Counted from the stretch's first letter, positions 84-56,605 are shown. The stretch is 64,000 bases of DNA from Myxococcota bacterium (GCA_039028615.1 JBCCHT010000026.1:1-64000); one strand, 5' to 3'. Notes: a model not told the origin generated them from the letters alone. Numbers and translations are program-made.

Positions 84-1253
84 CTAAGAACGAAGGACCG
101 TCGCCAGCGATGTCCGGGCCGCAACGATGGCGGGGAACAAACCCCCGGCCAGGCCCATGAGCGCTCCGCAGACTGCTGCCGTGATGGCGACGCTCGGAGA
201 GGGACGGAACTCGAAGACCACCTGCGACAGGCTCGAGACGTTCATCACCGAGAACTGCACGAAGCCGAGGCCGAGCGCGGCCACCGAGCCCAGCGCGCCG
301 CCCAGCAGCGTGACGGTCAAAGACTCGAGCACGAAGCCACGCAAGATGGCGCCTCGGGTGAAGCCCAGCGCGCGCAAGACTCCGATCTCGCGCCGACGGC
401 TGCCGACCGCGGCATGCATGGTGATGGAGGCGCCGAGCATGGCCCCGACCGAGGCGAGAGCGGCGATGATGATGCCCAAGGTGCCGAGGAACAGTGCGGT
501 GCCCTCGGACTGCTGGGCGTAGAACTCTCGTTCGCGCTGGAATGAGACGTTGAGTCCAGAACGCTCGGCGGCGGTTGCCTGCACTTGTTCGAGAGCTTCG
601 GGGCTCTCGAGTCGCAAACGGACCGACGAGACGACACCGGGTCGCCCGAACGCGCGGCGGATGACCTCGAGGTCACCCCAGACCTCCGACTCGAGCACCG
701 AGCCGCCGGCCTCGAATACGCCGACCACGGTGACTCGTCGCCCGCGGTCGAGCTCGAACGAGCCGCCGAGCGTCAGCCCGTCGAAGCGGCCCTCGATCGC
801 TCGACCCACCATGACCTCGTCGACGCCGGGATTGGGCGGTCGTCCTTCCGTGACTCGGACCTCGGGTCGTAGGGTGAGGGAGGCCCTGGTGGTCCCGCGC
901 AACATCATGTTGCTCCCGCCTTCGGAGCCTTCGTGGGCGAACGACTTGAGGGTGACCAGCTCTCCGGCGACCAACGGCTCGCCCGCTTCGCCCCGCGCGA
1001 CGCCGGGCAGCGAGCTGATGCGGGCCAGGTCTTCGTCGCTGATGAGGCTGCCCATCTCGTTGTCGGCCCCCCGCCGCAGGGCGACGGCACGATCGGGAGA
1101 TCCGGCCTGCCCGGAGCTGCGGCGGATGCCTTCTTGCAACATCAATGACGCAGCGAGGACGAAGACGACGAGGGCCACCCCCATCGCGGTGGCGACGGTG
1201 GTGCGCCAACGCGAGCGGAGGCTGGGCAGGTGATAGTGGCGTAGGAGTTTCAT
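84..1253 (-). CDS. ABC transporter permease (MacB/FtsX family)
   Basis: 389 aa. N-terminal TM helix, large periplasmic domain, C-terminal TM segments with RRREIGVLRALGF motif. Start overlaps the upstream stop. Confidence 0.9.
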   Translation of the reverse strand: MKLLRHYHLPSLRSRWRTTVATAMGVALVVFVLAASLMLQEGIRRSSGQAGSPDRAVALRRGADNEMGSLISDEDLARISSLPGVARGEAGEPLVAGELVTLKSFAHEGSEGGSNMMLRGTTRASLTLRPEVRVTEGRPPNPGVDEVMVGRAIEGRFDGLTLGGSFELDRGRRVTVVGVFEAGGSVLESEVWGDLEVIRRAFGRPGVVSSVRLRLESPEALEQVQATAAERSGLNVSFQREREFYAQQSEGTALFLGTLGIIIAALASVGAMLGASITMHAAVGSRRREIGVLRALGFTRGAILRGFVLESLTVTLLGGALGSVAALGLGFVQFSVMNVSSLSQVVFEFRPSPSVAITAAVCGALMGLAGGLFPAIVAARTSLATVLRS

Positions 1254-2410
1254 GTGGTCCTCCGGAGGGCTTCGCGAGCCGGGATCTTCGAGATGGACAG
1301 GGCGGGGACCAGACCGGCCGCGACGGCCGAGGCGATCGCCACTCCGGCCGAGGTCAGGTGAAGGGCGAGGGGAATGCGAAACCGGGGGAACAAGGACCCC
1401 ATCGATTCCTCGACGGCGGGGCCGATGCCTTGGTCGATGAGCAGGTAGCCACCGAGGCTACCGAGCAGGCCGCCGAGCGCCCCGAGCACCGCAGCCTCGC
1501 CGAGAATCATGAGTACGACGTGCCGGCGGCTGAACCCCAGCGCGGCAAAGACCCCATACTCGCGGACGCGCTCGCGGATGATCATCGCGAGTGCGTTGCC
1601 CAGCACCAGCATGATGATGAGGAGGAGGATGATGGAGATGACGCCCAGGGCGCTCATCACCGCCGCGAAATTGCCCAGCGAGTACTGCTGCATCCCGCGC
1701 TCGCTCATCGTCAGCGTGCGGATTCCGGCGGCGAACTGTTCGTCGATGGCAGTGGCCAGCTCGGTGCCGCGGCGCGGGTCGACGCGGCTCATCAACCACC
1801 CCACCTGCTCGCGTTGGGTCTCGTCGGCGGCGTCGTTGAGGTAGTCCCAGCGGATGAGGATCTGGCTGCGGTCGACGGCGTTGCTCGTGGACGCGTAGAG
1901 CCCCTGCACGCGGAAGGTCCACGCCCCGGGGAAGACGGTGCCCTCGAGGGTGAGCGTGTCTCCGATGCCGAGGCCGAGGTGTGACGCGATGCCTTCACCG
2001 AGGATCACGCCCTGCCGATCGGCGCGCCAGCTCTCGAGCTGCTCGGCGGGCACCTCCATGTCCGTGTAGACGTCGAAGTAGGACTCGGGGTCGATCGCCA
2101 GCACCGTGAGCTGCTCGTCGGGGCGTGCGGGGTGCTTGCCGCCGAACCACGTGGCGAAGGTGACCGCGTCGATGCCATCGATGGCCCGGATGGCCTGGGC
2201 ATGTCGTGCGGGCAAGGGCTGGGCGTAGGAGACCTCGTTCCAGGTCGCGAGGCGATCCTGAGGACCTTCGGAGGTGTTGGCGGTGAGTGACCACAGCGTG
2301 GTTCGAAGCAGCAGCAGGGTGACGATCGCAAAGGTGACGGCGATCGCGGTGAAGGCCAGCCGGGCCCGGTGACGCGTGAGGTTGCGGAGCACCAAGGTCA
2401 GGGAGGTCAT
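1250..2410 (-). CDS. ABC transporter permease (MacB/FtsX family)
   Basis: LRNLTRHRAR N-terminus, ERVREYGVFAALGF motif, TM segments. Start placed at ATG 2410 (ATGA overlap with the ATPase stop) rather than the ORF-track 2449. Confidence 0.88.
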   Translation of the reverse strand: MTSLTLVLRNLTRHRARLAFTAIAVTFAIVTLLLLRTTLWSLTANTSEGPQDRLATWNEVSYAQPLPARHAQAIRAIDGIDAVTFATWFGGKHPARPDEQLTVLAIDPESYFDVYTDMEVPAEQLESWRADRQGVILGEGIASHLGLGIGDTLTLEGTVFPGAWTFRVQGLYASTSNAVDRSQILIRWDYLNDAADETQREQVGWLMSRVDPRRGTELATAIDEQFAAGIRTLTMSERGMQQYSLGNFAAVMSALGVISIILLLIIMLVLGNALAMIIRERVREYGVFAALGFSRRHVVLMILGEAAVLGALGGLLGSLGGYLLIDQGIGPAVEESMGSLFPRFRIPLALHLTSAGVAIASAVAAGLVPALSISKIPAREALRRTT

Positions 2411-3102
2411 GCGAGGACCCCCTTGTCGAGCCGGCGAGTGCGTTTGCACCGTTCCGCGGCCTCGGGGTCGTGCGTGACCATGACGATCGTCTTGCCGAAC
2501 TCGGAGTTGAGCGTGCTCAGCAGGGTCATGATGTGGTCCGCGCTCTTGCGGTCGAGGTCACCCGTGGGCTCGTCCGCCACGATGAGGCGCGGGTCGGTGA
2601 CGAGCGCCCGCGCGATGGCGACGCGCTGCTCCTGGCCGCCGGAGAGCTGTCGCGGCAAGTGATCGGCACGCTCCGAGAGGCCGACGACCTCGAGCGCGGT
2701 ATGGGCTCGCGTGGCTCGCTCTTTGGTCGAGAGGCGAGTCGTGAGCAGCGGGACCTGGACGTTCTCGAGCGCAGTGAGGACGGGAATGAGGTTGAAGGAC
2801 TGAAAAACGAAGCCGACGCTGCGGGCCCGCCAGCGCGACAGCGATGCGTCGCTCAAGGTCGTCAGCTCTTGCCCTTCGACCTGGACTTCACCACTGCTCG
2901 GGCGATCGAGGCCGGCGATGATGTTGAGCAACGTGGTCTTGCCCGAACCCGAAGGACCCATGAGCGCCTCGAATGCGCCGTCCTCGATGTCGAGGTCGAT
3001 GCCGGAGAGGATCTCGAGATCGGGGCCGGAATGTCGCGGGTAGCCCTTGGTCACGGACCGAATACGGATCATGGGATTGGCTCGTTGTGATTCAGAGGAC
3101 AT
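2407..3102 (-). CDS. ABC transporter ATP-binding protein (LolD/MacB-like)
   Basis: Walker A GPSGSGKTT, Q-loop GFVFQSFNL, signature LSGGQEQR, Walker B IVADEPTGDLD, H-loop VTHD. Confidence 0.95.
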   Translation of the reverse strand: MSSESQRANPMIRIRSVTKGYPRHSGPDLEILSGIDLDIEDGAFEALMGPSGSGKTTLLNIIAGLDRPSSGEVQVEGQELTTLSDASLSRWRARSVGFVFQSFNLIPVLTALENVQVPLLTTRLSTKERATRAHTALEVVGLSERADHLPRQLSGGQEQRVAIARALVTDPRLIVADEPTGDLDRKSADHIMTLLSTLNSEFGKTIVMVTHDPEAAERCKRTRRLDKGVLA

Positions 3103-3106
3103 TGGC

Positions 3107-4342
3107 TCACTCGTTTCGCAGCTGGAACTGCTGCCCGTCTTCCAGGTCGGGCGGTACTACGTCGATGATTGGGGTGCCGGGTGCGGGGCCGTCGAGAAGC
3201 TCGATGCCGTTCGCTCCGGACGAACCAACCCGGACGGTCGTGGCACGAACTCTGTCGCCATCGACGACGAACACGACAGATCGCCCACCTCGCTCGGCGA
3301 CGGCGGCGGCAGGGACGACGGGCGGTCGCGGTGTATCGGCTCGAGGTGCGGGCAAGATGTCGATGCGGGCAGCCATGCCGGGACGCACGTCGCCGTCGGG
3401 AGCCACCAGCTCGATCTCGGCCTCGAGGGCGGCGCGAACTCGGTCGACCCCGGTCGCCAGCGCGTGCACGCGTCCGGTGTAGCGACGGTCGGGATAGGCG
3501 GTGAGCGTGACTTCACAGGGAGCTCCGACCTGGACCGTGCTCAGCTGGGTCTCGGGCAGATCGGCGTGGACTCGAAGCTGCTGCAGATCGACCAACTTCA
3601 CCACCGGTTGCGACAGGGGCCCTCCCACCAGCTCCCCGGGGGCGGTGGGCTCCTCGGCGACCGTGCCCGCGATCGGAGCGCGCACGGTCAGGCGGCCTCG
3701 GGCCTGGCGCTGGAACTCGGTGTCGGCTCGAGCCGCGGCCAGCTCGGCGCGTGCCGTCGCCAGCTCGGCGCGTAGCCGTTCCGCCGTTGCCTCTTCTTCG
3801 CGGGCTCGATCGGCGGGGTTGGTGCCCTGAGCGACGAGCCGTGCCTCGACCTTCGCACGGTGCTCGGCCTGACGAAGTTCGGTACGTCGCGCTGCCGCCC
3901 GCATCTGGGCCACGCGCTCTCTGGCTTCGGCCCGGGCCAACGCGCCGTCGTGCTCGATCGAGTCGAGCCGGAACAGGACATCACCCGGCTCGACTCGGTC
4001 GCCGCGGTGCACGACCCGCTCCGCCAAGGTCCCGGCGATGGGGCTGCCCACGTCCGAGGTCACGGGGGCCGTCACGTAGCCGGTGACGGTGAGCTCGACG
4101 GCTGTCGGGTCATTCGAAACGGACGCGATGCGAACGGATCCCAGCACGGGGAGGTCGGAGCCGCCCATGATGCTCGGCATCGACGAGAGCAGCCCGGCGA
4201 TGCCCGCGATGACGACGAGCACCGCGGCCACCACCACCGGGCGACTCGAGCTGGAGCGGGCCGGGGGCTCGGGCTCCAACCTCAGCGACGCGAGTTGCTG
4301 CTGCAGCTGCGACGTGGCCTCGGTGGTGGCGGGGCTCTTCAT
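3107..4342 (-). CDS. Efflux periplasmic adaptor (MacA/HlyD-like membrane fusion protein)
   Basis: N-terminal TM anchor, lipoyl-like halves (GDRVEPGDVLFRLD; VRAPIAGTV), helical hairpin, RPGMAARI. Start at ATG 4342 (ATGA overlap with the cupin stop). Confidence 0.88.
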   Translation of the reverse strand: MKSPATTEATSQLQQQLASLRLEPEPPARSSSSRPVVVAAVLVVIAGIAGLLSSMPSIMGGSDLPVLGSVRIASVSNDPTAVELTVTGYVTAPVTSDVGSPIAGTLAERVVHRGDRVEPGDVLFRLDSIEHDGALARAEARERVAQMRAAARRTELRQAEHRAKVEARLVAQGTNPADRAREEEATAERLRAELATARAELAAARADTEFQRQARGRLTVRAPIAGTVAEEPTAPGELVGGPLSQPVVKLVDLQQLRVHADLPETQLSTVQVGAPCEVTLTAYPDRRYTGRVHALATGVDRVRAALEAEIELVAPDGDVRPGMAARIDILPAPRADTPRPPVVPAAAVAERGGRSVVFVVDGDRVRATTVRVGSSGANGIELLDGPAPGTPIIDVVPPDLEDGQQFQLRNE

Positions 4343-4734
4343 GGCTCGAGGTGCTCGGGGCGGTCCACGGTCCGCTCGGTTCGCACGTTGCCCGTATTGA
4401 TGGTCCCGGCGGGTTCGAAGAGCAGCACGTAGGCGTCCGACTCCGCCCACGGCCGATGCTCTACGCCGCGTGGGATCGTGGCGAGCTGGCCCTTCGACAA
4501 CGTGATTCGCCTGGACCCCGAGTCCTCGCGGAGGTCGATGTGAACGACGCCCTCGACGACGAGGAACAGCTCGTCTTGCGCGGCGTGGTGGTGCCAGTCG
4601 AACTCGCCGCGGAACAGCGCGAGCTTGACATGCTGGCCGTTGAGCTCAGCGACGATCCCGGGGGTCCATGGCCGGGACAGGCGTCGGGCCTGCTGCGCCA
4701 GGTCGGTGACGGTGACGGTCGGTGTGTGGACCAT
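4339..4734 (-). CDS. Cupin-domain protein
   Basis: 131 aa with cupin motifs WHHHAAQDELFLVVEG and IPRGVEHRP. Confidence 0.85.
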   Translation of the reverse strand: MVHTPTVTVTDLAQQARRLSRPWTPGIVAELNGQHVKLALFRGEFDWHHHAAQDELFLVVEGVVHIDLREDSGSRRITLSKGQLATIPRGVEHRPWAESDAYVLLFEPAGTINTGNVRTERTVDRPEHLEP

Positions 4735-4740
4735 GGCAGA

Positions 4741-7053
4741 TCAACTTCGCCAGGTGTGGACCCTCCGCTGAAGGACGGAGGCGGCACCGTCCATGATCAG
4801 CTCGGCGAGTTCGTCGACATGGCGCGAGCGCCAGTCTCGGCGGTCGGTGCCTCGCAGCAGCGCATTGAGCGAGCCCATGGCGGGGCCGCAGTGGATCTGA
4901 AAGTTGGAGCGCTCCTCCAGGTTCCCGGCCAGAGCACTGCGGATCGAGTGGACGAAGTAGGGCACGAACACCCGCACCATCTTGTGGCGCGGCACTCGGA
5001 GCGCGCGCTCGATCTCGTCGTGGCGGCCTCGTTGCTCGAGGTATTGCCGAGTCTCCTGCCAGACCTGATCCAGGCTGCGACGGAAGTAGTGACGCTCGAG
5101 GCTGGCTCGAGTGCCCGAGTCGATCGCGTCGAGCGACTCGAGGCTCTGGTAGAGGCGGTACAGCTTGTTGGCGCGCGCAGGGAAGAGCGTGCCCTTGCCG
5201 CGTACGACCTGGACCTTGGCCCCGAGCTCGAACATGTCGCCGGCCGGGGCGTAGGCGACATCGCCGACCTCCACCGTGGCGAGGATGTCCTTGACCGCGT
5301 CGGAGGTGTCGGCTTCGACCGTGCACTGGTTGATGGAACCGGTGACGATGAAGTCGGCTCCGAGGGCGAACGCGGCGGCGGCGGCTTCCGGGGTCCCCAA
5401 GCCTCCCGCCGCGCCTACCCGAATCGGCTCGGGGAAGCGATGCTCGCCCCCGGCGGCGTCGCGTAGGCGCGAGATGATCGGCAAGGTCGCGGTCGACGTG
5501 GCCCCGTCCGTGTGACCGCCCGAGTCTGCCTCGACGCAGATGTCCTGGGCGATGGGCAGACGGCGTGCGACCTCGGCTTCTTCGGCGCTCAGCTGGCCGC
5601 TCGCGACCAGCGGCCGGAGAATGCGGTCGGGCGCGGGGGCCATGAATAGGCGCGCGACTTCAGGGCGAGAGACCTTCGCGATCACGCGACGCGTCGTGAC
5701 GGCTTGCCCGTGTTCCATGCGACTGCCGGAGAAGCGGAACCGCACGATCGCCGGCGTTATGCGCATGAACGCCGAGGCTTCGACCAGATCGACCCCACGC
5801 TCGAGGTACAGCGATGTCAGGGCCTCCTCGCGATCGGGTTCGTCGGGCGTGTGCAGAAAGTTGGCGCCCCAAACAGCGCCTTCGGGCACGGCCGCGCAGA
5901 TCTGGTCGAGGGCCGAAGCGACCTCGGGCAGCGGCATGCCACCCGTGCCCAGGAAGCTCATCAAGCCCGCTCGTGCCATGCGGATCACGAGGCGGGCAGA
6001 CGCGATGCCGCGAAACATCGCCCCGGACGCGTAGGCGAGCCGGACCCCATGTGCGCGTCGAAACTGGCTGCTACCCAGGGCGCGAGGGGAGACGGAAGCT
6101 GGTGCGGACTGCAGAGCTGAGGGGGAGGCTTGCCTCGGGGCAGGAGCGGGGGCAGCAGGAGTGGGGGGCGGCGACACTCGAGGCGGAGCCTTGGGCACGG
6201 GTCGAGGCGCCTTGGCGGCTTCGGCCCACAGCGACTTCAGCACCCGGCCGGGCCCGAGCTCCTGAATGTCAGTGACGCCGCGTTCGCGGAGCCCATGCAT
6301 CAGCTCGAACCACCGCACGGGTTCCCGCAGCTGTCGGGTGAGCAGCTCGCCGAGCCCATCCGCAGTCACGGGCTGGGCCGTGGTGCCGGAGAGCACCGGG
6401 CGGCGAGGTTCCGCGAAGCGGGTTGCGGTGAGGTCGGCCGCGAACGCGTCGGCGGATGGTTGCATGTAGCGGGAATGAAATGCAGCGCTGACCGCCAGCG
6501 GCACGCAACGAACTCCGTCGATCTCACTCAGCTTCGGGGCCAGCGCCTTCAGCGAGTCGTTGGGGCCCGCGACGATGATCTGCTGATGACCGTTGTGGTT
6601 GGCGATGTCGATGTCATCCGCGTTCAGCCGCTCGAGGTGTGGCTTCAGCTTCTCCATGGGGATGCCGATGATCGCCAGCATGCCTCCATTGCGGGCTTGG
6701 CCCATCAGCTCCCCGCGGCGTTTGATCAGGCGCAGCCCGGTGGGGAAGTCGATGCACCCGGCGGCCAGCAGGGCGTTGTACTCACCCAGGCTGTGGCCGG
6801 CGAAGAAGTCGGGCAGCCCCTCGCGTTTCGCCACCTCCCACCAGGTCATCGCGTTGACGACGAACAGCGCGGGCTGGGTGTACTGCGTCTGGCCGAGCTT
6901 TCGCTCGGGATCTTCGAGACAGAGTCGCTCGATGGAGTAGCCGAGAATCTCGTCGGCGAGGGCAGTCTGCTCTCGGTAGCGGGCGAACAGCTCCGCTCCC
7001 ATGCCCTTGCGCTGGGACCCCTGGCCGGGAAACAACACTGCACGACGGCCCAT
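4741..7053 (-). CDS. Trans-acting malonyl acyltransferase fused to a PfaD-type enoyl reductase/oxidoreductase (LnmG/PksE-like AT-ER)
   Basis: FPGQGSQ, QYTQPAL, active-site GHSLG, SAAFHS (malonyl type). C-terminal PfaD-like domain with GAMFRGIAS, AKVSRPEVA, EADSGGHTD, APAGDMFELG. Start at ATG 7053. Confidence 0.93.
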   Translation of the reverse strand: MGRRAVLFPGQGSQRKGMGAELFARYREQTALADEILGYSIERLCLEDPERKLGQTQYTQPALFVVNAMTWWEVAKREGLPDFFAGHSLGEYNALLAAGCIDFPTGLRLIKRRGELMGQARNGGMLAIIGIPMEKLKPHLERLNADDIDIANHNGHQQIIVAGPNDSLKALAPKLSEIDGVRCVPLAVSAAFHSRYMQPSADAFAADLTATRFAEPRRPVLSGTTAQPVTADGLGELLTRQLREPVRWFELMHGLRERGVTDIQELGPGRVLKSLWAEAAKAPRPVPKAPPRVSPPPTPAAPAPAPRQASPSALQSAPASVSPRALGSSQFRRAHGVRLAYASGAMFRGIASARLVIRMARAGLMSFLGTGGMPLPEVASALDQICAAVPEGAVWGANFLHTPDEPDREEALTSLYLERGVDLVEASAFMRITPAIVRFRFSGSRMEHGQAVTTRRVIAKVSRPEVARLFMAPAPDRILRPLVASGQLSAEEAEVARRLPIAQDICVEADSGGHTDGATSTATLPIISRLRDAAGGEHRFPEPIRVGAAGGLGTPEAAAAAFALGADFIVTGSINQCTVEADTSDAVKDILATVEVGDVAYAPAGDMFELGAKVQVVRGKGTLFPARANKLYRLYQSLESLDAIDSGTRASLERHYFRRSLDQVWQETRQYLEQRGRHDEIERALRVPRHKMVRVFVPYFVHSIRSALAGNLEERSNFQIHCGPAMGSLNALLRGTDRRDWRSRHVDELAELIMDGAASVLQRRVHTWRS

Positions 7054-7830: not shown

Positions 7831-9063
<1,233 letters not shown>

Positions 9064-9090: not shown

Positions 9091-9336
9091 TCAGGCCTCC
9101 GGGTAGATCGGCTCTCCGCCGTCGGCCGACTCGATCCGGATCGCCTCGGTAGGGCAGGATCGGGCCGCGGCGATGGCATCGTCATCGGCATCGATGAGCT
9201 CGGTGAGCGCCCGAGATCGGGCTTCGTCGTCGAGTTCGAAGTGATCGGGACAAAGGGCGAGGCATGCACCCGCGCCGATGCAGCGGTCGCGCTCGATGAT
9301 CAGACGCCATCGGGGATTGTCGAGGTCCTTGGCCAT
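9091..9336 (-). CDS. Ferredoxin (P450 partner)
   Basis: CIGAGAC...CP...CPTEAI pattern; lies directly downstream of the P450 gene. Confidence 0.88.
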   Translation of the reverse strand: MAKDLDNPRWRLIIERDRCIGAGACLALCPDHFELDDEARSRALTELIDADDDAIAAARSCPTEAIRIESADGGEPIYPEA

Positions 9337-9358
9337 TTTGATCTCTCCAGGGAGGGGG

Positions 9359-12580: not shown

Positions 12581-12588
12581 CGGGCGGG

Positions 12589-13536: not shown

Positions 13537-15365
<1,829 letters not shown>

Positions 15366-48222: not shown

Positions 48223-48464
48223 CCCGACGAGATGTCATCGCCGCCCTGCATGAGGCGGTTGCCCTGGTCTTGCCCCACGTGGGCGCAGAAGAGATCCGAA
48301 TGGACCGTAACCTCGAGCAGCTCGGAGCGGACTCCGTAGACCGAATCGAGATCCTGGTGGGTATGACTCAGCGCCTGGGCGTTCAACGGCCGCTGTCCAG
48401 CTTCGCCACGGTGCCCGACATCGGGGCGCTCATCGACATGCTGGTCTCGGAGGCGGGCCGATGA
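48219..48464 (+). CDS. Discrete donor acyl carrier protein (LnmL/AcpK-like)
   Basis: 81 aa from ATG 48219 (ATGA overlap); LGADSVDRIEI motif. Confidence 0.88.
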   Translation: MTRRDVIAALHEAVALVLPHVGAEEIRMDRNLEQLGADSVDRIEILVGMTQRLGVQRPLSSFATVPDIGALIDMLVSEAGR

Positions 48465-49705
48465 GCGCCTCGGAGCTCGGGATCGGCATCGAGGACCTCA
48501 ACGTCTACCTCGGCTGCCTCAAAGTACCCGTTCGCAGCTTCTTCCAGGCGCGCGGGCTCGACGAGCGTCGCTACGGCAACCTCCAGATGCAGGATCGTTC
48601 GATCGCACTGCCTCACGAGGACCCGGTGACCCACGCCGTGAATGCGGCCAAGCCCATCGTCGATGCGCTGGGCGACGCCGAGCGAGCCTCGATCGAGGTG
48701 TTGGTCACGGCTTCGGAGTCGGGCGTAGACATGAGCAAGTCCATCGCGTCTTATGTACATCGATACCTCGGGCTCTCGGGGCGGTGTCGCCTGCTCGAAG
48801 TGAAGCAAGCCTGCTTTGCCACGACGGGAGCGGTGCAGCTCGCTTCGGGCTACTTGGCATCGGGGATCTCGCCGGGAGCGAGGGCGTTGGTCATCGGTAC
48901 CGATGTGGCGATCGTCAACGAGCGAGCTCAGTACGCCGAGCCCACCATCGGCACGGGCGCAGCGGCGCTGCTGCTCGGCCCCCGGCCTCGGGTCTTTCAT
49001 CCCGATCACGGAGCGTTCGGCAATCACAGCTTCGAGACCATGGATTCGGCGCGCCCTCGGCCCGACTTCGAGATTGCGGATGTCGACGGCTCGCTATTCG
49101 CCTATCTCGACTGCCTGGACCGGAGCTTCGCCGCCTACGCGGATCGAGTCGAGGGCGTCGACTTCGAGCGGACCTTCGACTATCTCGCGTTTCACACCCC
49201 CTTCGTCGGACTGGTCAAGGCCGCGCACCGCAAGATGATGCGGAGCACGGGAGCCGACCCGGGGCAGGTGGCGGCCGATTACGAGCGCCGGGTCGCGCCT
49301 TCGCTCGTCTACCCGGGGCAGGTGGGCAACCTTTGTTCCGCGTCGGTGTACCTCGCACTCGCGAGCATCATCGACAGCGGGAACTTCGACGAGGGAACCC
49401 GCGTGGGCCTGTTCTCCTACGGCTCGGGGTGTTCCTCGGAGTTCTTCAGCGGTCGTATCGACATGGAGTCCAAGCGCACGCTGGCAAAGCACCGCATCGC
49501 CCAGCGCCTGGCCGATCGCATCGAGATTACTTTTGAGCAGTACGAGCGCCTACTCGAGGAGAACATGAAGTGCCTCGTACCCGTGGCGGACCGGGTCCTC
49601 GAGACCGCGCCCTACGACGCGTTGCTGGATCGGATCCCGGACCGGGATCCGATGTTGGTCCTGAAGAGGATTCGCCACTTCCACCGCGAGTACGACTGGG
49701 TCTGA
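48461..49705 (+). CDS. HMG-CoA synthase-like beta-branching enzyme (LnmM-like), copy 2
   Basis: EDPVTHAVNAA, SESGVDMSK, EVKQACF, LAFHTPF, FSYGSGC. Confidence 0.93.
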   Translation: MSASELGIGIEDLNVYLGCLKVPVRSFFQARGLDERRYGNLQMQDRSIALPHEDPVTHAVNAAKPIVDALGDAERASIEVLVTASESGVDMSKSIASYVHRYLGLSGRCRLLEVKQACFATTGAVQLASGYLASGISPGARALVIGTDVAIVNERAQYAEPTIGTGAAALLLGPRPRVFHPDHGAFGNHSFETMDSARPRPDFEIADVDGSLFAYLDCLDRSFAAYADRVEGVDFERTFDYLAFHTPFVGLVKAAHRKMMRSTGADPGQVAADYERRVAPSLVYPGQVGNLCSASVYLALASIIDSGNFDEGTRVGLFSYGSGCSSEFFSGRIDMESKRTLAKHRIAQRLADRIEITFEQYERLLEENMKCLVPVADRVLETAPYDALLDRIPDRDPMLVLKRIRHFHREYDWV

Positions 49706-49726
49706 GCCCAGGGAAACGAGTTCACC

Positions 49727-49987
49727 ATGCAGCCCAACAACTCTCTCGATGGCCACATCCTGTCCGTTCTTCGCCAGTCCTTGCGCACCGTCCTCCCCGA
49801 CCTGAGCGAAGAGCAGCTCGTGCTCGACCGAGACCTCGCCGAGCTCGGGTTCAACAGCCTCGATCGTGCCGACGTCATCACGATGACCATGGAGGCGCTT
49901 GGGGTCGAAGTGCCGGTGGTGCAGTTCCTCGGGGTGAAGACCATCCGAGAGCTGACCCAGCTATTCGCTCGGCAGTCCCGTCGATGA
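49727..49987 (+). CDS. Discrete donor acyl carrier protein (AcpK-like), second copy
   Basis: 86 aa; LGFNSLDRADV motif. Confidence 0.85.
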   Translation: MQPNNSLDGHILSVLRQSLRTVLPDLSEEQLVLDRDLAELGFNSLDRADVITMTMEALGVEVPVVQFLGVKTIRELTQLFARQSRR

Positions 49988-51228
49988 AGATCGCGATCAC
50001 GGGGATGGGGGCTGCGACCGCCGCGGGGTACGGCGTCGCGCCACTGGTCGACACGCTACGCAGTGGTCGTTCGCAGATGGTCGCGGGAGCTCCACTGGAG
50101 CCTCCCGTATTGGCTCGCCTCCCAGACTCGAAGCCGGGCTCGCCCCCGGGGGCGGTCGAAGTGCCCGCCGGGGTCACGCGGTTGCTCGCTCGTAGCGGGC
50201 CCGAGCTCCAGGCCCTCGTGTGGGCGGGGATGGAGGCTTGGGTCGATGCATCGCTCCACGGAGGGGCCGTGCCGCCTCGTCGCATTGGCTTGGTGATCGC
50301 CGGACACAATCTCACGCAATCCCGGGCCCTCGAGGTCGAGCTGACCTACGCGGGGCGGCGTCGCTACGTGAGCCCTCGATTCGTGCAGGAGTCCCTCGAC
50401 TCCACCGCGCTCGGCATCGTGAGTGAAGCGCTCGGCATTCGCGGTGAAGGAGTGTTGGTCGGTGCCGCCTCGGCGAGTGGGAATGCGGCACTAATCCACG
50501 GCTGCCGCATGATCGCCGACAGTAGTGTCGACGCATGTCTCGTGCTCGGGGCGCCCACCCGATTGACGGCGATGCAGGTCCAGAGTCTCGCCAACACGGG
50601 CGCACTCGGAGGCGCGACCCAAGCCTCGAATCCTCGACGAGCGTGCCGCCCCTTCGACGAGGGTCGAGACGGCTTCATTCCCGGGCAAGCGGCGGCCGCG
50701 ATGGTGCTCGAGTCGATCCCCAGCGCGGCAGGGCGCGGTCGGCCGATGCATGCGACGGTGCTCGGCTACGGCAGTGCACTCGCTGCTCGTAGCGGGCTCG
50801 AGCCCTCGGTCGAGGCCGAGGCCGAGGCCATGACGACCGCGCTCGCCCGCGCGGGATTGAGCCCGGGCCGAGTTGACTATGTCAACGCGCACGGGACTGC
50901 GTCGCGGCTCGGGGACGAGACGGAAGCCGAAGCCCTACGACGCGTCTTCGGTGCGGCGCGCCCGTGGATCAACTCGACGAAGGGTTGGGTCGGGCATGCC
51001 ATTCATGCAGCCGGAGTGTTGGAGGCCGTTGCCGTCGTTGCTCAATTGTGTGGCGGTTTCGTGCACCCTAACGCCAATCTCGACCGGCCGATTGATTCCG
51101 CTCTGCACTTGGTGGGACCCGAAGCCATCGATCAGCCCATCACTCATGCGTTGTCCAATGGGTTCGGCTTCGGCGGCATCAACACATCGATCGCTTTCGG
51201 ACGTGCGCCACGAGCGGAGCAACGATGA
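49984..51228 (+). CDS. Stand-alone decarboxylating ketosynthase (PksF-like, Cys to Ser)
   Basis: GAASASGN at the active site (Ser instead of Cys), CRPFD, NAHGTAS, GHAIHAAG, GFGFGG. Start ATG 49984. Confidence 0.9.
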   Translation: MKIAITGMGAATAAGYGVAPLVDTLRSGRSQMVAGAPLEPPVLARLPDSKPGSPPGAVEVPAGVTRLLARSGPELQALVWAGMEAWVDASLHGGAVPPRRIGLVIAGHNLTQSRALEVELTYAGRRRYVSPRFVQESLDSTALGIVSEALGIRGEGVLVGAASASGNAALIHGCRMIADSSVDACLVLGAPTRLTAMQVQSLANTGALGGATQASNPRRACRPFDEGRDGFIPGQAAAAMVLESIPSAAGRGRPMHATVLGYGSALAARSGLEPSVEAEAEAMTTALARAGLSPGRVDYVNAHGTASRLGDETEAEALRRVFGAARPWINSTKGWVGHAIHAAGVLEAVAVVAQLCGGFVHPNANLDRPIDSALHLVGPEAIDQPITHALSNGFGFGGINTSIAFGRAPRAEQR

Positions 51229-51986
51229 GCACTCCGAACCATTGGATCCGAAGTCCGCCCAGAGCCTCGGGGAGGATCAAGCTGTTCTGCTTCGCGCATG
51301 CCGGAGGCGGGGCAGGGTTCTTTCATCCCTGGGTCCGCGCACTCGCCCCGGACATCGAGGTGCACCGAATCGTCCTGCCCGGCCGAGAGTCTCGCCGTCA
51401 CGAGCCCGCCATCTCATCGATGAGCGAGTTGGTGCCCCTGGTGGCCTCTGCTTTGCAAGCCCATGCGACGGGACCCTACGCCTTGTTCGGCCACAGCATG
51501 GGAGCAGCGATCGCGTATGAGGTTGCACGGTGGATGAGCACCGCCGATCGCACTCCTCCGGTTCATTTGTTCGTGTCGGGGCGCCGTGCCCCACATTTGC
51601 CGGCCCGGAGGGATCCTTTCCACCTGCTGCCCGATCCGGACCTACTTCGGCTGATTCAGCAGCTCAATGGAACGCCGAGTGAGGTCTTCGAGTCTCGAGA
51701 CCTGATGTCCGAGTTCCTTCCCTGCCTCCGCGCTGATTTCAAACTCAATGAAACCTATCAGCCAGTGCCAGGGGTACCCCTACATTGTGGCGTCACCGGG
51801 CTGGCGGGCGACGGCGATCCGGAGGTCGATTTCGATGAACTGTTCGCGTGGGGCGAGCTCACCACGGGTCCGTTCGAATCGCGCCTATTCGAAGGCGACC
51901 ACTTCTACCTGAACACGAGGCAAGAACAGCTACTCTCCGAGTTGAGCCGACGACTTGTTCGTGCTACCGATCTCTTCCTTCGCTGA
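51225..51986 (+). CDS. Type II thioesterase (LnmN-like)
   Basis: FCFAHAGG, LPGRESR, GHSMG, LRADF, FEGDHFYL. Confidence 0.93.
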   Translation: MSTPNHWIRSPPRASGRIKLFCFAHAGGGAGFFHPWVRALAPDIEVHRIVLPGRESRRHEPAISSMSELVPLVASALQAHATGPYALFGHSMGAAIAYEVARWMSTADRTPPVHLFVSGRRAPHLPARRDPFHLLPDPDLLRLIQQLNGTPSEVFESRDLMSEFLPCLRADFKLNETYQPVPGVPLHCGVTGLAGDGDPEVDFDELFAWGELTTGPFESRLFEGDHFYLNTRQEQLLSELSRRLVRATDLFLR

Positions 51987-52133
51987 ACAGCTGCAGAAAA
52001 GTCCGACTTCCGTAGCGAGTTCGACGCAGCTCGAATGCGACCCTTCGCATACACATGAATTAGCCACGCATAGGTGCGCCGCTTCGGCATAAGTGGATAC
52101 AAACCGGACCCTGGGACGGCCTACACTTTTGTC

Positions 52134-52153
52134 GGTGTGACGTATTTGACACC
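52134..52153. promoter_or_regulatory. Crp/Fnr-type binding site candidate
   Basis: GGTGTGA-CGTATT-TGACACC, i.e. TGTGA-N6-TGACA, one mismatch from TGTGA-N6-TCACA, upstream of the Crp/Fnr gene. Confidence 0.55.
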
Positions 52154-52337
52154 AGCGCCGAGCGTTATTGCAACGGGTCGGTCGGCTGGAAGGGTGGTCC
52201 GCCAAGGGCCACAAAAATGCTGTTCTGCTCAAGTCTGAGCAGAATGGGCGTAGAGCAACCCCCTATCGTCGCAGCCAACTCAGTCGTCGGGACCGTATAA
52301 AGGCCGTTGCTTGTTTGGCAATGCATGATGCCCGGCC

Positions 52338-53075
52338 ATGGTGGTCCTGCGCAAGGCGTTTTCGCACGTGTCTCGATACATACACGCGGACCTTCATTTG
52401 GGCCTACCGGAGAATACTCGGGTTTCTGTGGCAGATTTTATTGCCAGTAAAACTCTGAGTACGAAGCCTACGGTAGTCCCTCGAGGAACAATCATATACG
52501 GCTGTGGGATGAGCAGCGACTCTGTATGCCTCATTGAAGAAGGCAAGGTCAAGCTCGTTATGCCCACAGAGAAAGGAAAGTGCTGTCTACTGGACATACG
52601 ATCGAATGGTGAGTTGTTCGGTGAACTCGCCATTGCTTCATCGAGTCGCAATCACCTCGCGGTGGCGATGCAGCGGACTTCCTTCTATCGATACCCTTCC
52701 TCCCGACTCTTGACCGAGCTGGCGGACACCGGGCTCTTGCCCGAGCTGGTGAAGTACCTCGCCGCCCAAATCATCCAGCAGGAGGAAATCATCACCGAGT
52801 TCGTCACGACCTGCAGTGAAGAGCGCCTCGCGTTGTTGCTGCTGCGTCTGGCCAAGCGCAGCGTAGGTCGCGATGGCTCGCGCCTGATCCTCGAGGAGCG
52901 AATCTCTTGTCAGGACCTGGCCCAGATGGTCGGGACGACGCGGTCGCGCATCGGGCTGTTCCTCAAGCGGTTCCGAGAACTGGACCTGGTGCGCTCGGGG
53001 AAGACCTTCTTTCTGTCGATCGACGCACCTCGGCTCCGGCAGTACCTCGACGAGCACTTCGGTACCGAGACCTAG
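52338..53075 (+). CDS. Crp/Fnr family transcriptional regulator (LnmO-like position)
   Basis: cNMP-binding beta-barrel (IEEGKVKL, GELFGELA), ERLALLLLRLA helix, HTH QDLAQMVGTTRSRI. Exact start uncertain. Confidence 0.88.
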   Translation: MVVLRKAFSHVSRYIHADLHLGLPENTRVSVADFIASKTLSTKPTVVPRGTIIYGCGMSSDSVCLIEEGKVKLVMPTEKGKCCLLDIRSNGELFGELAIASSSRNHLAVAMQRTSFYRYPSSRLLTELADTGLLPELVKYLAAQIIQQEEIITEFVTTCSEERLALLLLRLAKRSVGRDGSRLILEERISCQDLAQMVGTTRSRIGLFLKRFRELDLVRSGKTFFLSIDAPRLRQYLDEHFGTET

Positions 53076-53145
53076 CCAATCAGGCCTTGGCTCGGTGCTC
53101 ATGATTGAGCGGGAAGCGGGCGACGGTCGGGACAATATTCGGGTA

Positions 53146-54687
53146 ATGGACGCACGAACCGTCTCGGCTGACTCCGAGCTTCGCACCATCCTCGATGTCC
53201 TCACCGCTCGCGCCGCCCACGAGCCCGAACGCGTGGCGTTGCGGGTGATCGGGGGCCCGTCGTTGACCTTCGGTGAGTGGGAGCGGCGAGCCAACGCGGC
53301 AGCCCACGCTTTGCTCGACGCTGGAGTGAACAAGGGCGACGTCGTTGCCCTGTTCTTCGACGACAGAGACTGGGTGGACTACGCGGTCGCGTATATCGGA
53401 GCGTACAAGGCGGGGGCGGCTACGGTACACATGAACCCGTGGTACCCCGAGGCGGAGCTCGAGCGTCGCATCGAACAATGCGGCATCGAGACGCTCGTCC
53501 ACTCCGCGGACCTACGGCCGCCCAAGGCCGGCCGGGTCCTCAGCGCAGACGCCCTCCACCATGAAGATGTCACTGCGCCCGATGTCCCGCTCGGACCCAA
53601 GGACCTGGCCGACATCGCCTATACCGCGGGCACGACCGAGGGGCGCTCCAAGGGCGTGATGGTCGAACACGACGACTACCTGCTGGGGATCGACCTGGAG
53701 GAGGTCGTCGGCAATGACTCCGCCCTGAGCTTCTTGGGTCCCTTTCCCGCGGGCACTCCCTCGAGTCAGAATATCTTGTTGATGGGGATGGCGATGCCCC
53801 GACAGCTGTTGCTGCTGGACGAGCCCTCGCCGCAAGCCACCTGGGACGCCATCGAGTCCGAGGCCATCACCAACGTGATGATCACGCCGGGCATGGCGGT
53901 CGACTTGGTCAACTTGCCCTGCGCCCGACAAGGCGTGCTCGAGTCGGTGACCTCGCTGTCCGTGGGGGCGGCCGCCATTGCTCCCACGATGATCGCTCGC
54001 TTGATCGCGTTGTTCCCCAACGCATCGGTGACTCAGTACTACCTGTCGCTGGAGTCCATCCCCGCGATGGTGGCGTCGAGCTACGATCCGAAGCGGCCCG
54101 GCGCGGTCGGCAAGCCGCTGCCCGGGACCGGGATCGAGATCAGAAACCAGGCGGGCGAGGCCCTCGGGACCGGTGAGATCGGGGACATCTGGATGCAGCC
54201 GGCGGGGCGCGTACGTGCCTACAAAGGCGATCCGGAGTGGAACGCGAGGACCTTCCACGGCGCATGGATGTCGATGGGGGACAAGGGCTTCATGGACGAG
54301 GATGGCTACTGCCACTTCTACGATCGGGCGGCCGACGTGATCTCCGGCCCGGAGGGCTTCACGTCGACGCTGGCCGTCGAGGACGCGCTCTTTCAGCATC
54401 CCGGCGTGCGGGATGCCTGTGTCGTAGGGGTCCCGGGGGCCGATGGAGCGACACGAGTCGCCGCGGCGCTGGTGCTCGCGCCCGGGGCCGCGGTCGACGA
54501 CGTCCTCTCGGTGTGCCGCGAACACGTCGCGCCGCACCAGGTGCCAAGCGAGGTCCGAGTCGAGGGGTATCTACCCCGCGGGATCATCGGCAAGACGCTC
54601 AAGCGAGAGGTTCGCAAGTGGTTCCATCCCAACAGTGGCGATGCGGCATTGTTGGCACATCGAGAAGATCGAGTGCGCTATTGGTGA
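53146..54687 (+). CDS. AMP-dependent acyl-CoA synthetase/ligase (LnmW-like)
   Basis: YTAGTTEGRSKG P-loop variant, VGKPLPG, MGDKG, VEDALFQHPGV, LPRGIIGK. Start 53146 or 53095. Confidence 0.85.
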   Translation: MDARTVSADSELRTILDVLTARAAHEPERVALRVIGGPSLTFGEWERRANAAAHALLDAGVNKGDVVALFFDDRDWVDYAVAYIGAYKAGAATVHMNPWYPEAELERRIEQCGIETLVHSADLRPPKAGRVLSADALHHEDVTAPDVPLGPKDLADIAYTAGTTEGRSKGVMVEHDDYLLGIDLEEVVGNDSALSFLGPFPAGTPSSQNILLMGMAMPRQLLLLDEPSPQATWDAIESEAITNVMITPGMAVDLVNLPCARQGVLESVTSLSVGAAAIAPTMIARLIALFPNASVTQYYLSLESIPAMVASSYDPKRPGAVGKPLPGTGIEIRNQAGEALGTGEIGDIWMQPAGRVRAYKGDPEWNARTFHGAWMSMGDKGFMDEDGYCHFYDRAADVISGPEGFTSTLAVEDALFQHPGVRDACVVGVPGADGATRVAAALVLAPGAAVDDVLSVCREHVAPHQVPSEVRVEGYLPRGIIGKTLKREVRKWFHPNSGDAALLAHREDRVRYW

Positions 54688-54878
54688 TGTCCGACACAGA
54701 GCCATAATCAAACTGTGCTGACCATGAGGCAATTGCACCGTGCGAGTCGTAGAACTTTGGGGTTGCGGACCGCTGGCCGGCAGGCCTCTTTCCGTTGCCG
54801 TGTTCCGGCTCAGGAACGTGAAATCTCACGGTCCATTGCATCTTGCGTGGCACCGACAGCGGATATAGTCTCGCGGCC

Positions 54879-55271
54879 ATGAGCAAGGCTTCAGGCACAT
54901 TCGAGCTTTCGGCGACCCACGACATCTATGACGAGAGTCCGGGCGCGAAGCTCAGTCGCACCAAATACACCAAGACCTTTCAGGGAGACCTTGTCGCATC
55001 GAGCACGGTCGAGTCCTTGCAGGCGGTCTCCGACGACGAGAAATCTGCGGCATACGTGGGCATGGAGCGAATCTCCGGCACGCTCGGTGGGCGCTCGGGC
55101 TCCTTCGTGCTCCAGCACAGCGGCCTCATGGTAGGGGACGGCATGGAACTCGAGGTCAAGGTGCTCCCAGGAATGTCGACCGATGAGTTGACCGGCCTTT
55201 CTGGCACGATGAGCATCGACATCAGGGACGGTCAGCACTTCTACGAGTTCGAGTATTCCCTCGAAGGTTGA
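54879..55271 (+). CDS. DUF3224-like beta-barrel protein
   Basis: 130 aa. KTFQGDL, AYVGMERISGTLGGRSGSFVLQH, TDELTGLSG pattern recalled for DUF3224. Confidence 0.7.
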   Translation: MSKASGTFELSATHDIYDESPGAKLSRTKYTKTFQGDLVASSTVESLQAVSDDEKSAAYVGMERISGTLGGRSGSFVLQHSGLMVGDGMELEVKVLPGMSTDELTGLSGTMSIDIRDGQHFYEFEYSLEG

Positions 55272-55513
55272 GTTGTTGAATTGATCGCGAGTATCGGTCA
55301 TTGTCGCGGTGCTCGCCCCTTCGGTTCATCGAATGGGCAAGTGCGAGCGGCAAGGCCGTATCGCGAGTGCGCGTTTCGAGCTTGCGCTCTTACGGGCTCG
55401 TGTTTGTAGGTCGAGTGGTGATTACGTCGTTGTTTGGGGTGGACCTCTTTCCTCTGTTCTGGCGCTCAATGATGAGCAGAGGTGATGAGAGTTCTTCGCT
55501 AGACCACGAGTCG

Positions 55514-55876
55514 ATGTCACAACCCGACATGAGCAAGATTCACCCGATTTTCATTCAGCAGGGAGAGCTGCTCGCGAAGCGCGATCTCGATGGGCTGATG
55601 GACCTGTACCATCCCGATGCCGTCTTCGTGCGATTCCAGCGTGTCGCCAGCGGCAAGAAGGAGATCCGGGAGGTCCTCGAGAAATACATCGCGCTGCAGC
55701 TCGAGTTCGTCGCTCTCGAGGAGTACGTCGATACTGGCGAGACCATCATGATGCGTTCCACCATGAAGGTCGAAGGCGAGACCGAGACCTCGTGTGCGAC
55801 GCTCGTGCTCCGCGACGGCAAGATCTGGCGACAGGCGGCCGCGCGAGAGGGTGGCGCCCGCGATTGGGGCTTCTAG
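55514..55876 (+). CDS. SnoaL/NTF2-like protein
   Basis: About 120 aa. DLDGLMDLYHPDAVF...GKKEIR...LRDGKIWRQ NTF2-like pattern. Start 55514 or 55529. Confidence 0.75.
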   Translation: MSQPDMSKIHPIFIQQGELLAKRDLDGLMDLYHPDAVFVRFQRVASGKKEIREVLEKYIALQLEFVALEEYVDTGETIMMRSTMKVEGETETSCATLVLRDGKIWRQAAAREGGARDWGF

Positions 55877-55879
55877 AGG

Positions 55880-56605
55880 GTGTCGGCGGACCACAGCGGT
55901 GAAATCCCACGGCTCGCTCTGGAGGCGTTCGCCCGGAGCTTTCACCGTGAAGCATGTTCCTACGGCTTCACGGGCGTGGATTACCTGCGGTTCGTCAATC
56001 ATCTCTTCGAGCGCATTTTGGAAGGGGAGCCCGACCCCGAGGTTCGACCGGGTCCCGCTGTCGTTTCGGCGGGGACCCGGGCCGACCTCACTCTTCCGTT
56101 GATGGGCCACGGGGTCGCGCTGGAGCGTTATCTCGAGGCTCGGCATGGCCCAGTACTCAGGCGTTGGCTCGCGGGACGGGCTGGGCGCTACTTCGCGATG
56201 TCGCGAACGACCGCCGAGCGACTGGACGCCGAGCGGCTGATTCGCGATCCCGAGACGGCCTTGGGCGTCATCGCGACACCCGACGGGAGCCCGCTGGGCA
56301 TCGCCGCCTACTTCGGGCTCGATCGAGCACAGGACCGGGCCGAGCTGCGAGTCATGGTCGGCGAGGCGTCCCTGCGGGCGGACGAGCTGCTCGAGGAAGC
56401 GGTGCGCCTGTGGGTCCGGTACGGGATCGAGGAGCTGGGCCTGCGAAAAATCGTGGCCAGCCTCTTGGGCGCTGACCTGCTCGGTGTGCGAGTGCATCAG
56501 CGGCTCGGCTTTGACCTCGAGGGCGTTTTTCGCGACGAGGTGGCCCTGGACGACGGCTTCCACGATGTCGTCCGCATGGCGCTGCTGAGCCCGCCTCAGG
56601 TCTGA
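55880..56605 (+). CDS. GNAT family N-acetyltransferase (RimJ/RimL-like) with an N-terminal extension
   Basis: RAELRVMVGE, YGIEELGLRKI, HQRLGFDLEGVFRDEV...DVVRM C-terminal GNAT pattern. Confidence 0.7.
   Translation: MSADHSGEIPRLALEAFARSFHREACSYGFTGVDYLRFVNHLFERILEGEPDPEVRPGPAVVSAGTRADLTLPLMGHGVALERYLEARHGPVLRRWLAGRAGRYFAMSRTTAERLDAERLIRDPETALGVIATPDGSPLGIAAYFGLDRAQDRAELRVMVGEASLRADELLEEAVRLWVRYGIEELGLRKIVASLLGADLLGVRVHQRLGFDLEGVFRDEVALDDGFHDVVRMALLSPPQV

Follow-up and report, generated by a model that had tools for sequence, protein, structure and literature searches.

Leinamycin-type megasynthases

The stretch of DNA analysed here (the window) covers 64 kb from the start of contig C26 in genome G000, a metagenome-assembled genome from an uncultured marine myxobacterium (12.27 Mb in 94 contigs, 96.7% complete, contamination estimate 1.83%); it starts at the contig end and carries genes of a leinamycin-type biosynthetic cluster. 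The leinamycin family as described so far is small (leinamycin, the guangnanmycins, the weishanmycins and the largimycins); its known producers are actinomycetes, and none of the described compounds bears a sugar. The family is defined by eight modules ending in KS-ACP-ACP-DUF-SH-TE, i.e. ketosynthase, two acyl carrier proteins, DUF2156, thiocysteine lyase and thioesterase (PMC7618002).

Two megasynthases lie on the plus strand. The first, an LnmI-type hybrid of a nonribosomal peptide synthetase (NRPS) with a polyketide synthase (PKS) (15438-28226), reads PCP-Cy-Cy-A-PCP-Ox-KS0-ACP-KS-KR-ACP-KS; the second, an LnmJ-type PKS (28268-47272), reads DH-ACP-KR, KS-ECH-ACP, KS-DH-KR-ACP, KS-DH-ACP and KS-ACP-ACP-DUF-SH-TE, with the DUF2156, pyridoxal phosphate-dependent thiocysteine lyase (SH) and thioesterase (TE) at 44072-47206, and contains no methyltransferase domain. 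Their reading frames stay open for 4262 and 6436 codons, which excludes a chance origin. A loader, the Cy-Cy-A-PCP-Ox module, six elongating KSs and one KS0 make up the eight modules, and neither protein has an acyltransferase (AT) domain, a discrete AT being encoded at 4741-7053.

Catalytic motifs are well kept. All six elongating KSs retain the Cys/His/His residues (DCACAS/EAHGTAT/KSNIGH in KS_b), while the first KS, the KS0 of the LnmI-type protein, has SAAGA instead of HGTGT; motifs are intact in all three dehydratases (DH), all three ketoreductases (KR), the SH lyase (SLSKD) and the TE (GASVGG). The best solved relative of the SH lyase is a PKS domain (PDB 9CEN, E 1e-73; SLSKD lysine motif aligned), far ahead of tyrosine phenol-lyases. 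The LnmI-type protein shares 45% identity with plasmid-borne actinomycete orthologues, and the code of its A domain, DLFNFSLVWK, is Cys-like, as is that of LrgI.

An earlier note, made from the window alone, had read here a Cy-Cy-A(Cys)-PCP-Ox module, a KS0-ACP-KS interface, a split DH-ACP-KR module and a terminal DUF2156-lyase-TE, and had assigned the cluster to the leinamycin family. Domain searches and motifs agree, and the domain reading is right because this architecture is the family definition of PMC7618002; the gene set and the placement in the DUF-SH tree (see below) support the assignment as well. Judged by its sequence, the assembly line is real and intact, and the cluster belongs to the leinamycin family by every genetic test.

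Loader, beta-branching and accessory genes

The starter unit is encoded on the minus strand (11402-15365) by a SyrC-like aminoacyl transferase (11402-12580), a SyrB2-type chlorinase (12589-13536; TIGR01762 over cut-off, HQA motif) and an A-PCP didomain (13533-15365) whose code, DFWNVGMVHK, is Thr-type. The trans-acting AT, fused to a PfaD-type enoylreductase (ER), is LnmG-like (4741-7053, minus strand; TIGR00128 and TIGR02814 over cut-off, motifs GHSLGE and AFHS).

Two sets of beta-branching genes were identified. The first (47269-49705, plus strand) comprises the acyltransferase/decarboxylase LnmK (47269-48222, TIGR04098 over cut-off), a donor ACP (48219-48464) and HMG-CoA synthase homologue (HMGS) 1 (48461-49705); by analogy to lnmKLM and lrgKLM1 it would form a propionyl-derived C3 branch. 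It is followed on the same strand by a second donor ACP (49727-49987) and a decarboxylating KS0 (49984-51228, Cys to Ser; together 49727-51228), and then by a type II thioesterase (TEII, 51225-51986) and a Crp/Fnr regulator (52338-53075; together 51225-53075). The order of lnmKLM, TEII and Crp/Fnr genes matches that in the lnm cluster.

On the minus strand lie the enoyl-CoA hydratase ECH1, LnmF/LrgF-like by Pfam and locus comparison (7056-7826), and the LrgM2-like HMGS 2 (7831-9063), to which a C9 branch can be assigned by analogy to PMC9396626. HMGS cassettes with one ECH1, no trans ECH2 and a carboxylated C3 branch are the pattern given for the family in PMC7618002, and the gene set here follows it. 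A chlorothreonine loader with two beta-branch cassettes, as in the largimycin subgroup, is likewise present; in largimycin, mutants showed the chlorothreonine, the C9 exomethylene and the propionyl-derived C3 branch (PMC9396626). Still, we do not file the cluster as largimycin, because no LrgO-type flavin oxidoreductase was found, either among the Pfam annotations of genes in the window and on contig C81 (described below) or by motif.

Other window genes were assigned mainly by Pfam. At the left end (84-4342, minus strand) a MacAB-like exporter consists of two FtsX permeases (84-1253 and 1250-2410), an ABC ATPase (2407-3102) and a periplasmic adaptor (3107-4342); nothing corresponding to its permeases or adaptor was found in the 16 actinomycete leinamycin-type loci used for comparison (from 14 genomes and two plasmids; each locus was taken as 50-102 kb, some are truncated at contig ends and many are closely related). 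A small cupin protein (4339-4734) and a ferredoxin (9097-9336) with a cytochrome P450 (9359-10537; Pfam and motifs, together 9097-10537) are on the same strand. To the right (53095-56605, plus strand) follow an acyl-adenylate ligase (53095-54687), DUF3224 (54843-55271), a SnoaL-like protein (55301-55876) and a GNAT protein of uncertain membership (55880-56605). DUF3224 occurs in 13 of the 16 actinomycete loci and is a useful border marker.

Profile searches placed the lnmK/L/M-like genes, TEII, Crp/Fnr, AT-ER, ECH, P450, ferredoxin and exporter where the note had them. Its text did not mention the A(Thr)-PCP/SyrB2/SyrC-like loader, the second HMGS, the second donor ACP, the decarboxylating KS0, a free-standing short-chain dehydrogenase/reductase (SDR) or the lack of a KR in module 7.

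A cluster apparently split between two contigs

The cluster had been described as apparently complete within the window. This did not hold: the window begins at a contig end, and a search of G000 with the genes annotated in two leinamycin-type clusters on plasmids placed a DUF6039 pair and a second P450 on contig C81, which holds 11 further cluster genes besides the pair. A terminator hairpin at the assembly break (window 36-71, no strand assigned) matches, in 35 of 36 nt, a hairpin directly after the tylF-like gene of C81, and in G000 this hairpin was found on C26 and C81 only. The first 290 nt of C81 are a fold-back assembly artefact around the hairpin. Joining the contigs puts convergent stop codons ∼54 nt apart around one terminator, and we infer that the cluster runs across the hairpin onto C81, spanning ∼70 kb (C81 plus window 72-56605).

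In order along C81 we identified genes for a TylF O-methyltransferase (167-937), an NDP-hexose 2,3-dehydratase (1076-2533), an AlkZ-like glycosylase (2587-3726), a glycosyltransferase (3794-4987), two DUF6039 proteins (5034-5939 and 5997-6935), the second P450 (6959-8176), a sugar C-methyltransferase (8305-∼9549), a second 2,3-dehydratase (9661-11073; 53% identical to the first), a 3-ketoreductase of the Gfo/Idh/MocA type (11052-12044), a 3,5-epimerase (12041-12646) and a DegT aminotransferase (∼12643-13770). A 608-aa gene of uncertain membership at the far border (13789-15615) has no Pfam or NCBIfam match and no paralogue; its N-terminal half looks dioxygenase-like by eye. The contig ends in an 18-nt tandem repeat (17250-17452, in an Ala/Lys-rich protein), as does contig C63.

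The DUF6039 pair, presumably LnmE/LnmH, ties C81 to the family. It stands in one run with the glycosyltransferase, the AlkZ-like gene and a dehydratase. DUF6039 occurs twice in each of the 16 actinomycete loci, is confined to the cluster in all three genomes searched whole, is absent from the 72 other Nannocystaceae genomes and, among 72,556 plasmids, matches the same four records as DUF-SH. The accessory set of DUF6039 pair, P450, TEII and Crp/Fnr is found in full only when C81 is included through the inferred join.

Deoxysugar genes and an AlkZ-like glycosylase

The C81 genes suggest a dedicated sugar pathway. Comparison with solved structures gave as best relatives CalS13 and two unnamed aminotransferases for the aminotransferase (E 1e-127 to 1e-136), D-mycarose 3-C-methyltransferase for the C-methyltransferase, a sugar 3-ketoreductase for the Gfo/Idh/MocA reductase, enzymes of the NovP/MycF type for the TylF-like protein and CalG1 for the glycosyltransferase; CalS13 is a C4 aminotransferase. 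Motifs of rmlA and rmlB type are present on contig C65 of G000. Together the sugar genes would make up a single pathway whose end product is a 4-amino-2,4,6-trideoxy-3-C-methyl sugar, probably O-methylated and in the L form.

We consider it probable that a ∼70-kb horizontally acquired island makes a glycosylated leinamycin-family macrocycle. It is unlikely that the core and the DUF6039, P450 and AlkZ-like genes act as described while the sugar genes serve another acceptor, act in transient self-protection or are inactive cargo. The 16 actinomycete loci, from which genes for TylF, dehydratase, transferase, C-methyltransferase, reductase and aminotransferase are all absent (one locus has a lone 36% epimerase match), would fit that possibility, as would a weak match, far below cut-off, of the glycosyltransferase to models of macrolide-inactivating transferases and the lack of a sugar-bearing member in the literature found. 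Yet every step for one amino-deoxysugar is present, intact and interleaved with family marker genes; the 2,3-dehydratase family is rare in the phylum (7 of 400 other genomes), the only G000 copies being those on C81; and resistance glycosylation normally uses plain glucose. Among 18 DUF-bearing actinomycete genomes, 11 have a 2,3-dehydratase, none of them within 4.8 Mb on the DUF contig, though fragmented assemblies could hide a link, as happened in G000.

The glycosylase, aligned to AlkZ (PDB 5UUJ), has QAQ, a (Q/H)-aliphatic-Q motif and not Q-x-D. The (Q/H)xQ motif is typical of cluster-associated AlkZ glycosylases (bioRxiv 10.1101/2021.10.29.466481). With the self-resistance glycosylases AlkZ and HedH4 the C81 protein shares PF06224, the QAQ catalytic motif and a position within the cluster (same source), but it is distant from AlkZ itself (E 2e-12). 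These features point to a DNA-repair self-protection gene. Only one of the 16 actinomycete loci has an AlkZ-like gene inside the cluster, and the same locus has a Thr/halogenase loader: in Streptomyces sp. NPDC019224 (G741:C6; L139:16457-18252) the gene, 45% identical to that of C81, lies directly after the Crp/Fnr regulator.

Module 7 and a candidate trans-acting ketoreductase

By domain search, module 7 of the LnmJ-type PKS (38552-41440, plus strand) is KS-DH-ACP; its DH is intact and its KR is absent, a KR being present at this place in all 16 actinomycete loci. A candidate replacement is the free-standing FabG-like SDR (10641-11405, minus strand; Pfam/NCBIfam). Its four best homologues (48-55% identity) stand apart from generic FabG, and its best match in the 16 loci reaches at most 31% identity. 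The only named close homologue, from Endozoicomonas sp. G2_1, is on a 366,106-nt contig, and the KR-less LnmJ-type PKS of that strain is likewise on a 366,106-nt contig. The best reading, in which we have moderate confidence, is that the SDR would supply module-7 ketoreduction in trans. Two results speak against it: an SDR homologue is not listed for the contigs of the two other KR-less PKSs on long contigs, P0005 and P0015 (co-occurrence in one of three), and a search of metagenomes for this clade yielded nothing beyond generic FabG-level matches (35-43%).

Slightly less likely than misplaced sugar genes is a product in which module 7 does not reduce and a C5 ketone is kept (an enone, with no episulfonium), or one with an oxazole or a lactone, the SDR acting elsewhere, e.g. 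on the starter. The absent KR, the position of the SDR gene next to the loader genes and the limited co-occurrence would all agree with this; there are also precedents in largimycin, where LrgI has a Cys-like code yet forms an oxazole and LrgJ-TE can close lactones (PMC13200230). On the other hand, an intact DH needs a beta-hydroxyl, in the actinomycete loci with the Thr loader module 7 includes a KR and an SDR orthologue is lacking, and the AlkZ-like gene argues for a DNA-alkylating product. Reduction in trans by the SDR is the reading carried forward below.

Host genome and cluster borders

The host is supported as a Paraliomyxa-like myxobacterium of the Nannocystaceae. RpoB of G000 has 94% identity to Paraliomyxa miuraensis and 85% to Nannocystis/Enhygromyxa, and the MYXO-CTERM sorting signal gives 65 matches in G000 against none in 14 controls, so that marker gene and sorting signal agree. 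The window DNA is present in one marine-metagenome run and in no RNA run listed; in the metagenome a single 18,848-nt unitig spans 44501-61658 with no differences and at even depth (17-23), leading from the PKS end into host lipoprotein genes. The unitig path fragments at 61633-62014, inside a von Willebrand factor A (vWA) gene that belongs to a paralogous family in G000; this is unrelated to the cluster.

The host flank lies outside the cluster (56985-63202, no strand assigned) and contains Nannocystaceae-type lipoproteins (56985-58793 and 58835-59842), an SDR and the vWA protein (61184-63202). The first lipoprotein has three paralogues elsewhere in G000, and 4 of 72 family genomes carry homologues of it. 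A same-genus genome contains an orthologue of the vWA gene at 71%, and a gene at the far end of C81 has 75-76% orthologues in two same-genus genomes. Because of these orthologues (71-76%) at both ends, the outer borders of the island are both host DNA. In a search of relatives for the empty site, orthologues of the two flanks were on different short contigs. No tRNA gene was found in the window. G+C content falls to 61-62% at 52001-56000 (Crp/Fnr to GNAT) compared with ∼68% elsewhere, and TEII and Crp have third-position G+C (GC3) of ∼0.70, which suggests a mixed origin of the right border.

The Nannocystaceae-like host proposed in the note is borne out by RpoB, sorting signal, unitig and flank genes alike, and we saw nothing in the flanks that would place the host in Actinomycetota; an actinomycete host is rejected. 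An assembly or binning artefact, with the cluster or C81 stemming from a co-occurring actinomycete, is very improbable: the genome is metagenome-assembled, the codon use of the cluster is atypical and many of its genes have actinomycete sequences as best named or solved relatives, but one unitig joins PKS and host lipoproteins, the far end of C81 has its same-genus orthologues, contamination is low, the exporter has a periplasmic adaptor and the PKS groups with diderm sequences.

Distribution and origin

Among the best 120 of 136 matches in a survey of DUF-SH proteins (848 candidates scored, 3488-11099 aa; proteins, not clusters, were compared), 56, including the query, end in KS-ACP-ACP-DUF-SH-TE. 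Eight of the 56 are from named diderms (Pseudomonas, Endozoicomonas, four Burkholderia, Verminephrobacter and the acidobacterium Thermoanaerobaculia), none from a named myxobacterium. The best DUF-SH relatives have 50% identity at near-full coverage, and no near-identical sequence was found. Five of these proteins (P0058, P0064, P0070, P0072, P0074), all full LnmJ-type PKSs, group closely in a Burkholderia/Verminephrobacter clade, where a single 90% cluster comprises 46 members; no product of this clade was found in the literature searched. About half of the DUF-SH matches are of a non-leinamycin type, with ACP-DUF-SH at the PKS N-terminus (P0046-P0119; Lysobacter, Tahibacter, Sporocytophaga, Thermoanaerobaculia).

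A full DUF was detected in 1 of 73 family genomes (G000) and in 2 of 401 class genomes (G000 and G666), plus one partial unrelated match; further phylum genomes gave none (0 of 18 and 0 of 182, the depth for Myxococcaceae being unconfirmed). The DUF-SH query as a whole matched 141 of 401 phylum genomes, but the matches listed outside G000 cover the lyase half only (residues ∼310-720, best E 5e-41), at tryptophanase level. In a same-genus genome (G446:C927:8771-12250) the DUF match is a partial DUF2156-like domain with no SH lyase, inserted into a cis-AT PKS module after the AT and before the DH.

The G666 locus (G666:C33:24032-79694) is a second myxobacterial leinamycin-type cluster, from another family of Polyangia and in myxobacterial surroundings. 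Its LnmI- and LnmJ-type genes are each in at least two frames; an ACP/KS0/HMGS cassette, AT-ER, ECH1, a P450, a discrete NRPS-like loader and an aminotransferase-like gene are present, and LnmK, DUF6039, halogenase and sugar genes were not found there.

Combined trees of four KSs with DUF, SH and TE were built from 37-38 of the 56 proteins and G666, partial and near-duplicate rows being left out; they are quick trees with no bootstrap, include compositional outliers and have no inferred root. The query groups with five other KR-less proteins (SH-aLRT 98-100; 97, 93 and 69 in three separate partitions): those of Pseudomonas sp. H3(2019) and Endozoicomonas sp. G2_1, and P0003, P0015 and P0023. 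P0015 has a domain string identical to that of the query, and Endozoicomonas has the SDR in common with it; the Pseudomonas/Endozoicomonas forms differ in lacking the in-line ECH and in having a gap with methyltransferase matches in module 6. In the DUF-SH tree the query falls among the 56 rows with a C-terminal DUF-SH-TE, a side that has support 100 and is separate from 15 N-terminal or internal types; within the leinamycin-type side, DUF-SH alone places it at the base without resolution. In the combined trees its nearest kin are Pseudomonas/Endozoicomonas-type PKSs and not an actinomycete clade. One shared myxobacterial origin with G666 was rejected (AU test on a quick tree with LG+G4, p 0.017; the pair had been chosen beforehand).

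The statement that such clusters are known only from actinomycetes remains true of characterised producers; in the databases, the eight named diderm proteins and the G666 cluster contradict it. Horizontal gain, raised earlier as a possibility and not necessarily from an actinomycete, is likely: it is favoured because the distribution is patchy and codon use is atypical (one of the 6 blocks that deviate most out of 189; GC3 0.81 versus 0.855). The jump between phyla is less singular than the note supposed, and the sugar/AlkZ half is the more surprising feature.

Predicted biosynthesis and product

By analogy to largimycin, the A-PCP would load threonine, the SyrB2-type enzyme would chlorinate it and the SyrC-like enzyme would pass it to the first PCP. 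The Cy-Cy-A-PCP-Ox module would add a Cys-like residue and form an azole, probably a thiazole. Six AT-less extensions fed by the AT-ER could then give a 10,12-diene (modules 3-4), a C9 exomethylene (ACP/KS0/HMGS2/ECH1 with in-line ECH2), a C6=C7 alkene with no C6 methyl, there being no methyltransferase domain, a C4-C5 unit presumably reduced by the module-7 DH, the SDR as trans-KR and the ER, and the propionyl-derived C3 branch via LnmK/ACP/HMGS1. DUF-SH would put a hydropersulfide at C3 and the TE would close an 18-membered lactam on the threonine amine, with no LrgO-type oxime enzyme seen.

Tailoring would involve the P450s, the DUF6039 pair and the ligase. From host dTDP-4-keto-6-deoxyglucose, the 2,3-dehydratase, 3-ketoreductase, 3-C-methyltransferase, epimerase, 4-aminotransferase and TylF could build a 4-amino-2,4,6-trideoxy-3-C-methyl(-O-methyl) sugar, to be attached by the CalG1-like transferase to a candidate Thr-derived or P450-made hydroxyl. 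The product may alkylate DNA through a sulfur/alkene episulfonium, possibly with a chlorohydrin-derived epoxide as a second site, while AlkZ and the tripartite exporter would protect the cell. Leinamycin itself alkylates guanine N7 through its C6-C7 alkene and sulfur (PMC9570651).

Several points weigh against a glycosylated macrocycle from a joined cluster. The joining of C26 to C81 is based on 36 nt together with gene content, the first 35 nt of the window matching the tylF end of C81 only loosely, and the DUF6039 pair is not universal, because the G666 cluster has none. Two dehydratases face one transferase, so that a single sugar is not assured; thiazole and lactam are only probable because of the LrgI and LrgJ precedents (PMC13200230). 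Finally, the run behind the bridging unitig is possibly the assembly source, and the bridge is then not independent evidence.

More tentatively, and with rather less than even confidence, the product could be the first glycosylated compound of the family: a DNA cross-linker guided by an amino-deoxysugar, with two electrophilic sites, from a hitherto unrecognised, largely Gram-negative branch in which module-7 ketoreduction is outsourced to a FabG-like enzyme. The family is valued for sulfur-based DNA alkylation, and an amino-deoxysugar member would give it a DNA-targeting handle that its described members lack; the glycosyltransferase would be a tool for glycosylated analogues. The leinamycin family has entered myxobacteria at least twice, and other Gram-negative phyla as well. 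According to PMC13200230, the enzyme that forms the dithiolanone has yet to be identified. An 85.9-kb Paraliomyxa cluster has been expressed in Myxococcus xanthus (PMC10051162). The cluster offers a new background in which to test module-7 trans-reduction, the roles of the DUF6039 pair and the acyl-adenylate ligase, and how AlkZ-type resistance acts on leinamycin adducts.

Comparison with known systems

The lnm, gnm, wsm and lrg clusters were compared through published descriptions, not through reference sequences. Meng et al. (PMC8479088) list 109 DUF-SH clusters in four families, and the main text names no phyla. In the literature searched, PMC8597713, PMC7930024, PMC13014233 and PMC9230918 included, we found no myxobacterial or glycosylated family member, though Pan et al. 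2017 and the Meng et al. 2021 supplement may list hosts that are diderm or clades predicted to be glycosylated.

With leinamycin (lnm, Streptomyces atroolivaceus; PMC9570651, PMC8479088) the cluster has in common the two megasynthases, six extensions, DUF-SH-TE, AT-ER and the C6=C7 alkene module; it differs in a predicted chlorothreonine rather than D-alanine starter, a second beta-branch cassette, an in-line ECH and sugar genes, and in lacking a methyltransferase domain and a module-7 KR. With weishanmycin and guangnanmycin (wsm, gnm; PMC7618002, PMC8479088) it shares two HMGSs, a KS0, ECH1, a modular ECH in module 5 (wsm) and the thiocysteine-lyase SH, and differs in having LnmK and a halogenase loader. 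A GnmP-like persulfide methyltransferase, sought with a plasmid-cluster candidate, gave only partial matches (E 7e-9) elsewhere in G000.

Largimycin (lrg, Streptomyces argillaceus; PMC9396626, PMC13200230) has in common with the cluster the loader of Thr A-PCP, SyrB2-type halogenase and transferase (LrgY/LrgH/LrgS), the LnmK/ACP/HMGS and ACP/KS0/HMGS cassettes, a single ECH1, ECH2 in module 5, tandem ACPs in module 8, a trans-AT and several P450s. In contrast to largimycin, the present cluster has no LrgO-type enzyme seen and two P450s instead of three, and it has a sugar cassette, AlkZ, the SDR, a tripartite exporter and a myxobacterial host. What appears new in the cluster is this host, a putative chlorothreonine starter without an oxime enzyme, the apparent outsourcing of module-7 reduction and, above all, the amino-deoxysugar cassette together with AlkZ.

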